Positions 19,961-61,318 of a DNA stretch of 64,000 nt are shown here, piece after piece. The notes under the pieces are model-generated. The model saw only the letters and a program-made list of their open reading frames with translations. It had not been told where the DNA came from and made no database searches. Both the position numbers and the translations under genes were made by a program. The stretch lies in assembly GCA_965279515.1 (NCBI GenBank), contig CBDIID010000003.1:3584001-3648000 (forward strand), written 5' to 3'. How positions within the stretch are numbered: position 1 is the first letter of the stretch; each line of letters opens with the position of its first letter. This stretch comes from Turneriella sp. (GTDB taxonomy: Bacteria; Spirochaetota; Leptospiria; Turneriellales; Turneriellaceae).

Positions 19961-21943
19961 TTAGTTCGTCAGATTCTGGATATTTTCGAGCATCATGCCT
20001 TCTGTTAAGACCTGCGGCAAAAGCCGGAGGTTCCCTTGTTTGTCGTAAAAGGCATAGACCGGCACACCTGCACGGCCAAGGCGGGTGAGCTCGGCGGCGA
20101 TTATGTCATCGAGGTTGGTAAAATCTGCCTTGAAGAGTGACACGCCGCGCCCGGCAAAAGCCTTCATGACCTTTTCAGTAAAGGCGACCTGTTCATTGAC
20201 TTTGCAGCTCAGGCACCATTCGGCTGTAAAATCGATGAATACGGGCCTCTTTAAGGCCAGTTCGGCATCACGCGCCGCCGGGGAAAAATTGCGCCAGATA
20301 CCGGCTTCGGCATTCGTTTTTTCCGCCGGGGTTAATCCCACTATCGTAAAGCGGATGGCAAAACCCAATGCCAAAACCATAACAATGTACCGAAAGATTT
20401 TGACGGGTAGCCGCGCCGGGGCCACCTGGTGTTTGCCATAGATATAAAGAAAGAACGCAAAGATGAGGATGGCCGTCAGGAGCGAAAACGCGGCGTTTGT
20501 GAGCGCGGCGAAAACCCAGATGAGCCAGAGCGCCGAGCCCGCCATCATGAAGCCGAGCACACCTTTAAAGGTGATCAGCCACGCGCCGGGGCGCGGCAAC
20601 ATTTTACCCGCGCGCGGAAAAACCGCGATGAGCAAAAACGGCAGCGCCATACCGAGGCCGAGCAGCGGAAACATCAGAAAGCCGGCGGCGGCAGGCAGTG
20701 TGAGTGCGGCGCCGAGTGCGCTCGCCATAAAGGGCGCAGTGCAGGGCGTTGCGGCAATGACGGCAATGACCCCGGTCATCGCTTCGCCGATCGCGGGGCG
20801 GGTATTGAGCGCCGGCACGCGGATTTCGAAAACACCAAAAAGATTCAGCGCCATTGCAGCAAAGAGGAATGCCATTGCGGCGATGAACATCGGGTTCTGC
20901 ATTTGAAAACCCCAGCCGACCATCTGGCCGCTGGCGCGCAGAATCAGGAACAGTGCGCCGACCGCGCTGAAGGCGCCGATGACGCCGAGGGTGTAAGGCA
21001 GTGCATGACCCCACCCCGCCTTCGGCACCCCTCCCCTATTAGGGGAGGGGTTGGGGTGGGGTTTTGCATTCGCCAGCGACATAGCCTTGAGTGATAAAAC
21101 CGGCAGTACACAGGGCATAAAATTCAGCAGCAGCCCACCTAAGACAGCGAAGAGAAAAAATAATGCCACGGGCGTTTCATCGCCCGCTTGCGGCAAGGCT
21201 ACCGTATAGTGTGACCACGTATCTTTATCACGGATAGAGAGCAGTAAGCCGTCGCTGCGTTTCTTGCCTGTGGGAAATTCCAGCTGAAGTGCCTTACCAT
21301 CGATCACGGCTTTCGGTGCCGCAATGTCGACTTGTCCCAATGGATCGGCTATGGCGAGGACTTCGAGTGGCGCAACGGGGAGACACATGACAAAACGGTC
21401 AGCGGAGAGTTTTTCAATTTCAAAGGGCGATGGCCGGGGCAAGGCAGCACGCGTCTTGCTGAAAAAAATAACCTCATCGCTATCGCCGGTGCTTTTATCG
21501 GCGCTCTTTACGGGCAGCGAAAATGCCCCACCCGCTGGAATGCAGGACTCGCGGCATTCGAGGTAGTCAAGCTTGCCGGCAATTTTTCCCGCCGTCAGCG
21601 TGACGGGCACGAGCAAGACAACACGGTCGTGATACCCGTAAGATGTCAGCGGCGGCGCGACAATTTTTTCGGGCGGCGGGTAAACGATGTTGCCAAAGAC
21701 AATATCGGCGCCTGCGGGCTTGAGTGTCGCCGCGACGCCGCTGTCGCCGGGGTTCTTGTAATACGTGTGCCAGCCTTTGTCGAGGTCGATCTCCACAGCG
21801 ATGAAAAATTCTTCACCGGGTTTTGTCTCTAACCGCTCACTGCGCAGCTGGACTTTGCTGTGCAGGCCGCCGGGCCCCCGGAATGTTTTTGCGGTGAGCG
21901 CCGTCGCGAGAGACAGGAAAAACAAAACAAAGCACAAGCGCAT
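19961..21943 (-). CDS. dsbD: Thiol:disulfide interchange protein DsbD, carrying a palindromic segment
   Basis: WHTYYKNPGDSG, CRESC, LNFMPCVLPV, ATPCTAPF and FTAEWCLSCKVNE motifs; likely start MRLCF at 21943. Confidence 0.9.
   Translation of the reverse strand: MRLCFVLFFLSLATALTAKTFRGPGGLHSKVQLRSERLETKPGEEFFIAVEIDLDKGWHTYYKNPGDSGVAATLKPAGADIVFGNIVYPPPEKIVAPPLTSYGYHDRVVLLVPVTLTAGKIAGKLDYLECRESCIPAGGAFSLPVKSADKSTGDSDEVIFFSKTRAALPRPSPFEIEKLSADRFVMCLPVAPLEVLAIADPLGQVDIAAPKAVIDGKALQLEFPTGKKRSDGLLLSIRDKDTWSHYTVALPQAGDETPVALFFLFAVLGGLLLNFMPCVLPVLSLKAMSLANAKPHPNPSPNRGGVPKAGWGHALPYTLGVIGAFSAVGALFLILRASGQMVGWGFQMQNPMFIAAMAFLFAAMALNLFGVFEIRVPALNTRPAIGEAMTGVIAVIAATPCTAPFMASALGAALTLPAAAGFLMFPLLGLGMALPFLLIAVFPRAGKMLPRPGAWLITFKGVLGFMMAGSALWLIWVFAALTNAAFSLLTAILIFAFFLYIYGKHQVAPARLPVKIFRYIVMVLALGFAIRFTIVGLTPAEKTNAEAGIWRNFSPAARDAELALKRPVFIDFTAEWCLSCKVNEQVAFTEKVMKAFAGRGVSLFKADFTNLDDIIAAELTRLGRAGVPVYAFYDKQGNLRLLPQVLTEGMMLENIQNLTN
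21008..21062. repeat. Short palindromic element (family A), read in frame within dsbD
   Basis: ACCCCACCCC-GCCTTCGGC-ACCCCTCCCCTATTAGGGGAGGGGT-T-GGGGTGGGGT; related to 35981.. and 61258.. Confidence 0.85.
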
Positions 21944-34579: not shown

Positions 34580-34659
34580 AGGGCGCGCTCGTTCACCTTA
34601 TGCACAGTGGCAACGCTATTACGGATTTTCAAGGAGTGATTGCCTTTCATAGTGGGCCA

Positions 34660-35277
34660 ATGTCCTCTCCCCAGCGTTATCCCGTGTTAATCATCCAGGG
34701 ATTTCTCGCCCCCACCCTCACGAACTTTGTCCTGAAGACCCGCCTGAAGGCTGAGGGTTTTCTCGCCGAAGATGTGCCGCTCGCAGGCCTCAATGCCGGC
34801 GATATCCGCGAATCGGCGCGCGTCGTCGAAATGAGCGTCAATGCCATGCTGACGCGCGCTGGTACGAAAAAGGTCGACCTGATCGGCATCAGCATGGGCG
34901 GGCTGATCGGCCTGCACTATTTGCGCAAGCTCGGGGGTGACGAATATGTGCGCCGTTTCGTCGCGATCGGTACTCCTTTTAAGGGAACACATTTCGCGCG
35001 GCTGATGAAAGCGCTGACATTCGGGCGCGCGCCCGGCGCCGAGCAGATGATCCCCGGTTCTGATTTTCTCAGCGACCTGCACGACCATGACGGTCAGCAT
35101 CAGGCTGAAATTTACAGCCTGCACACCGATGCGGATGCCTTTGTTTCCGAAACCGCCGCCACGATGGACAAGGTCGAGCTCGTGAAATCGCCGCACGGTG
35201 TCTGGCCCGCAGGGCATTATACGCCGCTTTTTTTGAAAGAAGATTTTAAACTCATTAAGGAAATTCTGCTGAAATGA
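34660..35277 (+). CDS. Esterase/lipase (alpha/beta hydrolase)
   Basis: LIGISMGG nucleophile elbow and IGTPFKGT. Confidence 0.85.
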   Translation: MSSPQRYPVLIIQGFLAPTLTNFVLKTRLKAEGFLAEDVPLAGLNAGDIRESARVVEMSVNAMLTRAGTKKVDLIGISMGGLIGLHYLRKLGGDEYVRRFVAIGTPFKGTHFARLMKALTFGRAPGAEQMIPGSDFLSDLHDHDGQHQAEIYSLHTDADAFVSETAATMDKVELVKSPHGVWPAGHYTPLFLKEDFKLIKEILLK

Positions 35278-35981
35278 AACTCGAAAAAACCGGCGACCCG
35301 AAGAAAACACCCGCGGTCTTTCTGCACGGTTATGGTGCGCCTCCCAGGCTCTACCTGGACTTTGTCAGGCGCCTCGCGGAAAATTATTATGTCTACGTGC
35401 CTGAAATCTTCGGCATGAACGGTATCTGCCGCCGTGATTTTTTCGGCAACGTCGAAGCTTTGAGCCAAATGATGCGTGAGCATGATCTGGGGCAGAGCCT
35501 GGTTGTCGGCCATTCGTACGGCGCACTTGCGGCGATGCATCTGGCCGCGGAGTTTCCGTCGCTGCAGCGCGCCATCGCTGTAAATCCGCTGCTGCCTGAA
35601 ATTTTTACCCCTGATAAATTCAAGCTGCAGCTCGGTAACATGCAGCGTGACCTGAAATACGCCACGGGTGAGCTGCGCGGTATGCTCGCGAACCCCGGCG
35701 TCGGCATTGCTTATGGCATCAACGTCATTGCAAACCCGCTGGGGTATATCGAAGGCGCGGCGCGTGCCGTCGCGAGCCGGCTGCCTGAAAAACGCAGCGA
35801 GGTTCCCGTCGAACTCGTCTACGCCGATCTCGATACGCTTTTTCATATTGAGAACGACGATCTCTCCAAATGGCGCGGCGTGTTGCCGAAGCTGAAATTC
35901 ACACCGGTACCCGATTACAGCCATAACTGGCTGATCTACCATGGCTCGTATGCCTACGATACGATGAGGGGAATTTTGTGA
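35274..35981 (+). CDS. Alpha/beta hydrolase
   Basis: FLHGYG and VGHSYGA motifs; ATGA overlap with the upstream gene. Confidence 0.88.
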   Translation: MKLEKTGDPKKTPAVFLHGYGAPPRLYLDFVRRLAENYYVYVPEIFGMNGICRRDFFGNVEALSQMMREHDLGQSLVVGHSYGALAAMHLAAEFPSLQRAIAVNPLLPEIFTPDKFKLQLGNMQRDLKYATGELRGMLANPGVGIAYGINVIANPLGYIEGAARAVASRLPEKRSEVPVELVYADLDTLFHIENDDLSKWRGVLPKLKFTPVPDYSHNWLIYHGSYAYDTMRGIL

Positions 35982-36446
35982 CCCCACCCCGGCCTTCGGC
36001 CACCCCTCCCCACTAACGTGGAGAGGGGTTTTCGGAAAGTATGGCGATTAAGAACAAAGCCCGCAGTCTTCGAAAGAGTATGACTGATGCAGAAGAGGTG
36101 CTCTGGGAAAAATTGCGAAATCACCGTTTTCATGGTCTTCAGTTTAGGAGACAATATCCGGTTAGTCAGCGATACATTTTGGATTTTTACTGCGCTAAGA
36201 TTAGATTAGGGATTGAGATCGACGGAAAGATTCATGAGGGCAAACATATGAAAAGAAACGACACATTACGCACCGAAAGTCTAAATGCAAAGGGTATTAG
36301 AATTTTGCGATTTTCAAATTCCGAGGTCGTCGAAAAACTTCAGTTAGTTCTAGAGAAGATATTCTCACAGTTTCCCCCCTCTCCACGTCAGCCGTTGGCC
36401 AAGAGGCCACCGGCCTATTGGTGGGGAGGGGGTGAGGGGGTGGGGT
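35981..36446 (+). mobile_element. Putative small mobile cassette: DUF559 nuclease gene between hairpin-rich ends
   Basis: Terminal IR ACCCCACCCC (35981-35990) / GGGGTGGGGT (36437-36446); GTGA direct repeat at 35978 and 36445; AT-rich gene body. Confidence 0.65.
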
Positions 36447-36448
36447 GA
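36041..36448 (+). CDS. DUF559 / Vsr-like endonuclease-domain protein
   Basis: ARSLRKSMTDAEEVLWEKLR, FRRQYPV, YILDFYC, IEIDGKIH and ILRFSNSEV motifs. Confidence 0.92.
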   Translation: MAIKNKARSLRKSMTDAEEVLWEKLRNHRFHGLQFRRQYPVSQRYILDFYCAKIRLGIEIDGKIHEGKHMKRNDTLRTESLNAKGIRILRFSNSEVVEKLQLVLEKIFSQFPPSPRQPLAKRPPAYWWGGGEGVG

Positions 36449-61258: not shown

Positions 61259-61318
61259 AACCCCTCCCCAACCCCTCCCCTATTAGGGGAGGGGTGCCCG
61301 AAGGGCGGGGTGGGGTTT
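61258..61318. repeat. Short palindromic element (family A), inverted relative to 21008
   Basis: ACCCCTCCCCTATTAGGGGAGGGGT is identical to 21027-21051; followed by GCCC-GAA-GGGC and GGGGTGGGGT. Confidence 0.85.

Follow-up and report, generated by a model that had tools for sequence, protein, structure and literature searches.

A DUF559 nuclease gene bracketed by BoxC-like repeats in a Turneriella-like spirochaete: probable member of a nuclease-plus-cognate-repeat system

A small DUF559 nuclease gene, inserted between two hydrolase genes of a Turneriella-like spirochaete, is bracketed by oppositely oriented units of a dispersed, BoxC-like repeat, and units of the same predicted geometry accompany most DUF559 genes retrieved across phyla. 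We propose that this pairing probably represents, after RAYT/REP and Ssn/NTS, a third system of nuclease plus cognate repeat, which probably spreads by nicking and recombinational repair, and that the DUF559 family is a likely candidate for the missing partner enzyme of BoxC repeats. The window, meaning the whole 64,000-nt stretch analysed, corresponds to G000:C3:3584001-3648000, where G000 is the host genome; the labels G001-G011 denote congeners.

The DUF559 open reading frame (ORF) splits a row of three α/β hydrolase genes (Table 1). Its GC content of 0.40 and GC3 of 0.41, compared with 0.56-0.58 and 0.65-0.70 for the flanking hydrolases, agree with a sequence-only reading that had described an AT-rich DUF559 gene in a hydrolase operon, and the 10-bp inverted repeat proposed there as its boundary is present at 35981-35990 and 36437-36446. 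The left repeat unit begins on the last base of the TGA stop of the upstream hydrolase (35981), and the GTG start of the downstream hydrolase lies within the last bases of the right unit. The DUF559 domain covers residues 3-110; the C-terminal tail is translated through the right unit, and the stop of the ORF falls inside the right end of the cassette, as had been read from the sequence (the ORF ends at 36448). The ends of the cassette share bases with the stop upstream and provide the start codon of the gene downstream, which would explain why it is tolerated inside the operon. In addition, the purine-rich arms at 36421-36447 and 36018-36028 are Shine-Dalgarno-like and located just 5′ of the hydrolase GTG and the DUF559 ATG, which may also account for this tolerance. 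A promoter and terminator scan at the locus gave no signal exceeding shuffles, and an Rfam search gave no score near the gathering threshold.

Table 1. Coordinates of the cassette, its neighbours and related copies (window positions unless a contig of the host genome is named)
Feature	Position	Strand	Basis
α/β hydrolase, first of three	34600-35277		ORF list and Pfam
Upstream α/β hydrolase, 235 aa	35274-35981	+	ORF list, Pfam; orthologues in 11 congeners
Left repeat unit, type B	35981-36029	-	Pattern, geometry, fold z -4.2
DUF559 (Vsr/EDxHD-like) nuclease gene, 135 aa	36041-36448	+	Pfam PF04480, E 2e-33
Right repeat unit, type A	36374-36447	+	Pattern, geometry, fold z -3.05
Downstream α/β hydrolase, 311 aa	36445-37380	+	Pfam, orthologue comparison
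Gene-free collapsed copy of the repeat family, another subtype	21009-21061	unspecified	Repeat pattern
Gene-free collapsed copy of the repeat family, another subtype	61261-61315	unspecified	Repeat pattern
Internally deleted DUF559 remnant, 74-aa open frame, inside a tail-out pair	G000:C3:3433493-3433761		

Read on the minus strand, the left unit comprises a pyrimidine stem, a purine stem and a mirror G-rich third strand, a predicted triplex geometry; its parts are an outer tail (35981-35990), a GAA mini-hairpin (35991-36001) and an imperfect 12-bp stem with a 4-nt loop (36002-36029). The right unit is built from a pyrimidine stem (36374-36386), a purine stem (36421-36432), a 3-nt loop and a 12-nt mirror third strand (36436-36447) that matches at 12/12 positions if T is allowed opposite A; its stem loop is widened by a 30-nt insertion relative to G001. 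Purine-motif geometry is found in both units, as a 12-bp stem with a 3-nt loop 2 and an 11-bp stem with a 12-nt loop 2, and their stems hold a conserved T:G/C:A mismatch. In a hairpin-only folding model both cassette ends out-fold all 200 shuffles. The cross-matched hairpin arms that had been singled out earlier do pair perfectly (36003-36013 with 36421-36431, and 36018-36028 with 36376-36386), but we reject them as a separate feature, since the pairing follows from one imperfect hairpin being present in two opposite orientations.

These units belong to a repeat family dispersed in the genus. Matches to the core hairpin pattern number 86 in G000 (1 for the reversed control) and 5-81 per congener (n=13), and only 1 of 27 more distant relatives has any. 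A tail-plus-hairpin pattern finds 103 oriented units in G000, and a geometric test 106 repeat loci in its 4.84 Mb. In each unit a G-rich strand accompanies the pyrimidine and purine stems and mirrors the latter; units are found singly, as inverted doublets and as collapsed forms, in several stem and loop subtypes. They start with a C-rich tail, most commonly preceded by TAA, AAA or TGA, and 40 of the 103 directly follow a stop triplet, which in 31 cases ends an ORF of at least 100 codons. The 29 tail-out pairs of G000 combine short-loop (A) and mini-hairpin-loop (B) types as A+B (17), A+A (11) or B+B (1). G006, G010 and G011, each 99% complete, contain 8, 8 and 35 hairpins and no DUF559 match.

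The same architecture, with a C-rich stem, a G-rich stem and a mirror G-rich third strand in mostly intergenic positions, is described for BoxC/PIT/TMECO repeats (PMC4666352), which also form inverted doublets of two loop types, although the A+B share found here (17/29) is weaker than in Escherichia coli (5/5). In contrast, the strict TMECO pattern, in which a 9-nt C stem, a loop of 3-6 nt and a 9-nt G stem are followed by a 3-nt loop and a 9-nt G strand, has 0 matches in contig C3 of G000 and 1 near E. coli ycjD, the positive control. We term the window repeat BoxC-like by its geometry and not by the strict pattern, the triplex itself being predicted.

Some members of the family deserve separate mention. 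Two tail-out pairs of G001, L147 (C61:4551-4846) and L161 (C146:1364-1657), enclose about 240 nt of non-DUF559 cargo; that of L147 is a short ORF with a motif resembling a ribosome-binding site, and the corresponding G000 site is empty and lies between convergent stop codons. Comparison of L150 with G000:C3:706720-706856 suggests that a common doublet is inverted between G001 and G000 while its outer tails are fixed. At L181 and G000:C3:2394247-2394300, repeats of differing subtypes are apparently in frame at the extreme start of the gene in both species.

The pairing of gene and repeat extends far beyond the window. From 107 DUF559 loci, the window and G001 sites included, 100 were retained after removal of one without a tblastn hit, two duplicates and four with short flanks. 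A unit of triplex geometry lies within about 220 nt of 79 of these 100 loci, across phyla and on both sides in 60, compared with 9 of 557 control windows, whereas 21 loci lack a unit by the scripted test; as the loci were retrieved with seeds from the window protein and many are kin, these counts are not independent and overstate independence. A plain hairpin test, from which the window and G001 sites were removed, gave 68/98 loci versus 8/545 controls and 3/1960 shuffles. Metagenome DUF559 loci carry a unit in 45 of 53 cases (27 of 80 were skipped for short flanks) and viral loci in 9 of 10 (2 of 12 skipped), with controls at 8/235 and 4/47, respectively. Flanking palindromes at other DUF559 genes, which the sequence-only reading had anticipated, are thus present, and its concern that an abundant repeat might flank the gene by accident can be set aside: there are about 106 repeat loci on 4.84 Mb, a control window contains a unit in about 1.6% of cases, and we reject chance flanking. 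At 13 of the 100 loci (L040, L060, L061, L068, L071, L074, L079, L081, L086, L096, L108, L110 and L126) DUF559 lies in frame inside a long ORF, and 12 of the 13 have a repeat unit.

Of 20 full-length DUF559 genes in the genus, 16 pass the test (4 of 24 matches were partial and left out), and inspection by eye shows a variant unit at the four misses. The unit is found at only 1 of 13 small stand-alone GIY-YIG genes (13 of 29 matches, long-ORF matches being left out) and at none of 21 Y1/HUH genes (21 of 23, two contig-edge genes being left out); by eye, most genes of both kinds have palindromes of their own. We rejected a RAYT as the mobiliser of the DUF559 repeats, since other palindromes accompany both the sole Y1 gene found in G000 and 20 further ones from the genus. 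The G000 gene is L139 (G000:C3:2616152-2616472), a RAYT-like Y1/HUH gene between perfect palindromes of its own, whose centre is AT-rich. GIY-YIG loci L200-L206, L214-L217, L219 and L222 of congeners are flanked by their own palindromic repeats and are probably Ssn-like; none was found in G000.

The DUF559 gene of E. coli, ycjD, is present in 3378/5426 genomes. In strain K-12 one strict TMECO is located about 165 nt past the ycjD stop, which itself lies within a second, degenerate unit or overlaps it. BoxC units occur 3′ of ycjD in K-12 and B1.H1.1, and none was found in the matching interval of two ycjD-less strains. The fabI-sapF interval (L138, L251-L253) contains ycjD together with BoxC units, or else a TetR gene and an RND efflux operon without BoxC, as in the two strains that lack ycjD. 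No clean empty site could be read in E. coli, as this efflux operon occupies the interval in both ycjD-less strains examined. A search of open-access text found no paper that ties DUF559, YcjD or COG2852 to BoxC, triplex or palindromic repeats; the supplement that tabulates TMECO-flanking genes and the older BoxC papers lie outside that search.

At the window locus the history of the cassette can be read from its relatives. The orthologous hydrolase pair was found in 11 congeners, and in 10 of them the junction is empty, with a stop-start gap of 0-4 nt or a 1-nt overlap and no repeat; it is filled only in G001, the closest relative. In a quick tree rooted at the midpoint, G000 and G001 group together as a nested clade (support 97), so a single gain of the cassette is parsimonious, and we infer one insertion at the hydrolase junction. 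The look for empty sites in related genomes, which the sequence-only reading had suggested, therefore bears out its view that a cassette of nuclease gene and palindromes was inserted without disrupting the operon. Its further expectation that removal of the cassette would leave a GTGA stop/start overlap fails, as 0/10 empty junctions show one.

The sharp ends, the empty sites in 10/11 congeners, the internally deleted derivative and the A/B asymmetry in 17/29 doublets all resemble a classical autonomous insertion sequence, in which DUF559 would be the transposase, the 10-bp inverted repeat its ends, GTGA the target duplication and the gene-free doublets MITEs. Both GTGA copies exist (35978-35981 and 36445-36448), but we reject them as a target-site duplication: the left junction of G001 reads TTAA, 3 of the 8 GTGA bases are the repeat's own terminal bases, and among the 29 tail-out pairs of G000 a 3-bp direct repeat is found at one, the window cassette, versus 0.38 expected from random end pairing. 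The GTGA match is chance. Nor is end polarity fixed, since at the 60 doubly flanked loci the tails are turned inward (34), turned outward (17) or mixed (9). Recent near-identical copies were not found, the closest same-genome DUF559 pair being 60% identical; neither was a close copy of the window cassette elsewhere, the best metagenome matches being 49-52% identical. The protein, moreover, has a hydrolytic nuclease fold and none of the domains of known transposition enzymes for which we looked (see below). The insertion-sequence reading is largely refuted and we give it very little chance. No cassette-skipping joint was seen in the contigs of four of 15 sequencing runs, but only X3 among them spans the stretch and contigs drop rare variants, so this absence says nothing either way.

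Comparison of the two filled species, whose flanking proteins are 75-88% identical, further characterizes the cassette. The left unit is identical at 48/48 bases and thus appears conserved or homogenised far beyond neutral expectation. For the DUF559 ORF pN is 0.14 and pS 0.92, with pS of 0.57-0.69 in the flanking genes; the low pN relative to pS indicates purifying selection on the protein, and the high pS could reflect a lack of codon bias or in-place gene replacement.

Repeat subtype and nuclease lineage travel together. The DUF559 lineage of the window occupies three different sites in four species, always with the same repeat subtype (clade support only 88). Across 186 non-syntenic DUF559 pairs in the genus, protein identity tracks the number of shared flank 11-mers (rho 0.35, 0/5000 permutations): the median is 26 for the 17 pairs with at least 50% identity and 0 for the other 169. 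Same-genome pairs share at most 8 flank 11-mers in 16 of 17 cases, and a genome may contain up to six divergent DUF559 lineages at unrelated sites. The DUF559 tree (114 columns, quick method, 46/95 forks open) is used descriptively. Subtype tracking shows co-mobility of nuclease and repeat, not which part does the work. The second DUF559 gene of G000, L002 (G000:C3:1445171-1445479), is 31% identical to that of the window and is located between direct doublets of a different subtype, which its lineage also has in G003 and G005.

Old sites, in turn, change their content. Repeat loci of G001, G004 and G008 were mapped onto G000, among the matches listed (30/44 for G001, 30/34 for G004 and G008); 8 loci were dropped for absent flanks or synteny, and four subtype labels were corrected by eye. 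Among the matches listed, this yields 38 distinct site comparisons with G000, of which 11 are empty, 15 have the same subtype, 2 retain tails only and 10 carry a different subtype at the same junction. Independent landing would account for about 2% of sites, given about 106 loci among an estimated 4,500 or so junctions; 10/38 sites with another subtype hence indicate that the contents of old sites are replaced. One junction can be arranged as a series: the DUF559 cassette is intact in G005 and G009 and internally deleted in G000 (Table 1), and G004 has a doublet of another subtype that lacks the gene. At six congener DUF559 sites that are syntenic with G000, the latter has neither gene nor repeat. 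Together with the ten at the hydrolase locus, these repeat-free empty junctions argue against homing into resident repeats as the sole route.

On balance, we lean, with modest confidence, towards a model in which the cassette nuclease recognises and nicks its own BoxC-like repeat subtype and host recombinational repair spreads the repeats and turns over their sites. In this model the repeat, folded as hairpin or triplex, would be nicked or cut by the enzyme, with host recombination using another repeat copy to mend the break. Old sites would thereby change subtype, collapse or invert, and on rare occasions a gene-bearing cassette would be copied. Nick-and-repair of this kind would cover existing repeat sites; the first landing at a naive junction falls outside it. 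The cassette may be autonomous and propagate the repeats, as the sequence-only reading suggested, but recent identical copies were not found and three congeners have repeats and no detected DUF559 gene.

Those same three genomes, the non-DUF559 cargo of the G001 tail-out pairs, one of them at a site empty in G000, and the instability of TM loci in E. coli (PMC4666352) would fit a different view, namely that DUF559 is merely the commonest cargo of repeats that spread by structure-driven instability or another enzyme and capture small genes. Within the same genomes, however, each nuclease family has a repeat of its own, the repeat subtype tracks the DUF559 lineage and the G000 Y1 gene has unrelated palindromes, which makes this view improbable.

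The only Pfam domains of the protein itself are PF04480 and PF18741, and no DDE, HUH, tyrosine or serine domain is detected. A structure model (pLDDT 88) matches 3HRL in Foldseek (E 6e-8), the catalytic domain of I-Bth0305I, 3R3P (8e-4), and, more weakly, Vsr; 3HRL is also matched by sequence. The modelled fold is that of a hydrolytic nuclease. Residues E18, D48, E59, D61, H65 and D74 are invariant in 48 sequences, D48 with the caveat that it sits in a retrieval seed pattern, and by their spacing E18, D48, D61 and H65 seem to correspond to residues that have been aligned with the Vsr active site (PMC12907096). Catalytic fold and acidic/histidine residues are thus shared with EDxHD homing endonucleases such as I-Bth0305I, with Vsr and with VsrA (PMC3239194, PMC2677866, PMC12907096). 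Unlike the homing endonucleases as described in these sources, the gene is intergenic, in no intron or intein, and its product has no N-terminal NUMOD domain; a separate DNA-binding domain is absent, as the DUF559 domain begins at residue 3 of 135. The hairpins described upstream of phage EDxHD genes are 5′-only translational control elements and not a dispersed family (PMC3239194, PMC2677866).

Caulobacter VsrA, a DUF559 protein, causes an SOS response in vivo in a methyltransferase mutant and was interpreted by its authors as a mismatch-repair enzyme; its phenotype depends on a cytosine methyltransferase, to whose gene vsrA is unlinked, and flanking repeats of vsrA go unmentioned in the available text (PMC12907096). 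This dependence would suit a host-serving nuclease for repair or single-stranded DNA processing, either Vsr-like or domesticated as proposed for Ssn, for which the repeats are binding or regulatory sites and whose cassette is moved passively by recombination between repeats. The purifying selection, the retention of one site across the two filled species, the conserved T:G/C:A mismatch in the window stems and the presence of ycjD in 3378/5426 E. coli genomes point in the same direction. What speaks against a host role are the up to six divergent lineages per genome at unrelated sites, the in-frame insertions in long ORFs at 13/100 loci, the existence of decayed copies and the immediate neighbours in the window, which are hydrolases with no methyltransferase among them. 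We consider a host-serving role unlikely, yet worth keeping in mind.

The nick-and-repair model we lean towards has relatives. In REP/RAYT systems (REPtrons, TIRtrons) a low-copy nuclease gene is flanked by genome-wide palindromes that also form inverted doublets (PMC3733652), and the analogy to them drawn by the sequence-only reading is apt. Unlike RAYTs, the DUF559 protein has no HUH/Y1 domain and its hairpin no 5′ GTAG or CGTC tag, and the HUH genes of the genus have separate palindromes. Ssn/NTS provides a non-HUH precedent for nuclease-repeat pairing (PMC11893778): across phyla, a small single-domain nuclease gene lies between cognate hairpin repeats (flanked on one side in 71% and on both in 42%), with its own repeat variant per homologue and a mobile-element architecture without transposase. 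The differences are that Ssn is a GIY-YIG enzyme, whereas here a Vsr-like PD-(D/E)xK fold is combined with a mirror third strand, and that small GIY-YIG genes of the Turneriella genus have a different repeat; DUF559 and Vsr are unmentioned in the available text of that paper. By analogy, the system would work like RAYT/REP and, most closely, like Ssn/NTS, while its nuclease fold excludes membership of both.

BoxC/PIT repeats have been without a function or partner enzyme since the 1990s (PMC4666352). The main text of the TMECO study names no partner enzyme and does not mention ycjD, DUF559 or a nuclease, although its supplement tabulating flanking genes could list ycjD, and no transposase or integrase near TMECO is reported there (PMC4666352). 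We tentatively put forward a more far-reaching possibility, held with clearly less confidence than the nick-and-repair model: DUF559/YcjD proteins may make up a large nuclease family with specificity for triplexes or hairpins, in which every member has its own BoxC-type repeat, and may drive a transposase-free selfish element which seeds, converts and re-invades repeats by nick-and-repair. Theirs would be the third nuclease fold, after HUH and GIY-YIG, known to operate with cognate palindromes, the first keyed to three-stranded DNA, and the cause of the reported genome instability at BoxC loci.

The candidate partner in E. coli K-12, with ycjD beside a TMECO, makes the origin and instability of BoxC directly testable. 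If true, the proposal would explain what a widespread domain, so far of unknown function, does, and the Caulobacter VsrA phenotype would be worth re-reading in the light of the repeat pairing. The family may also yield a set of very small structure-specific nucleases.
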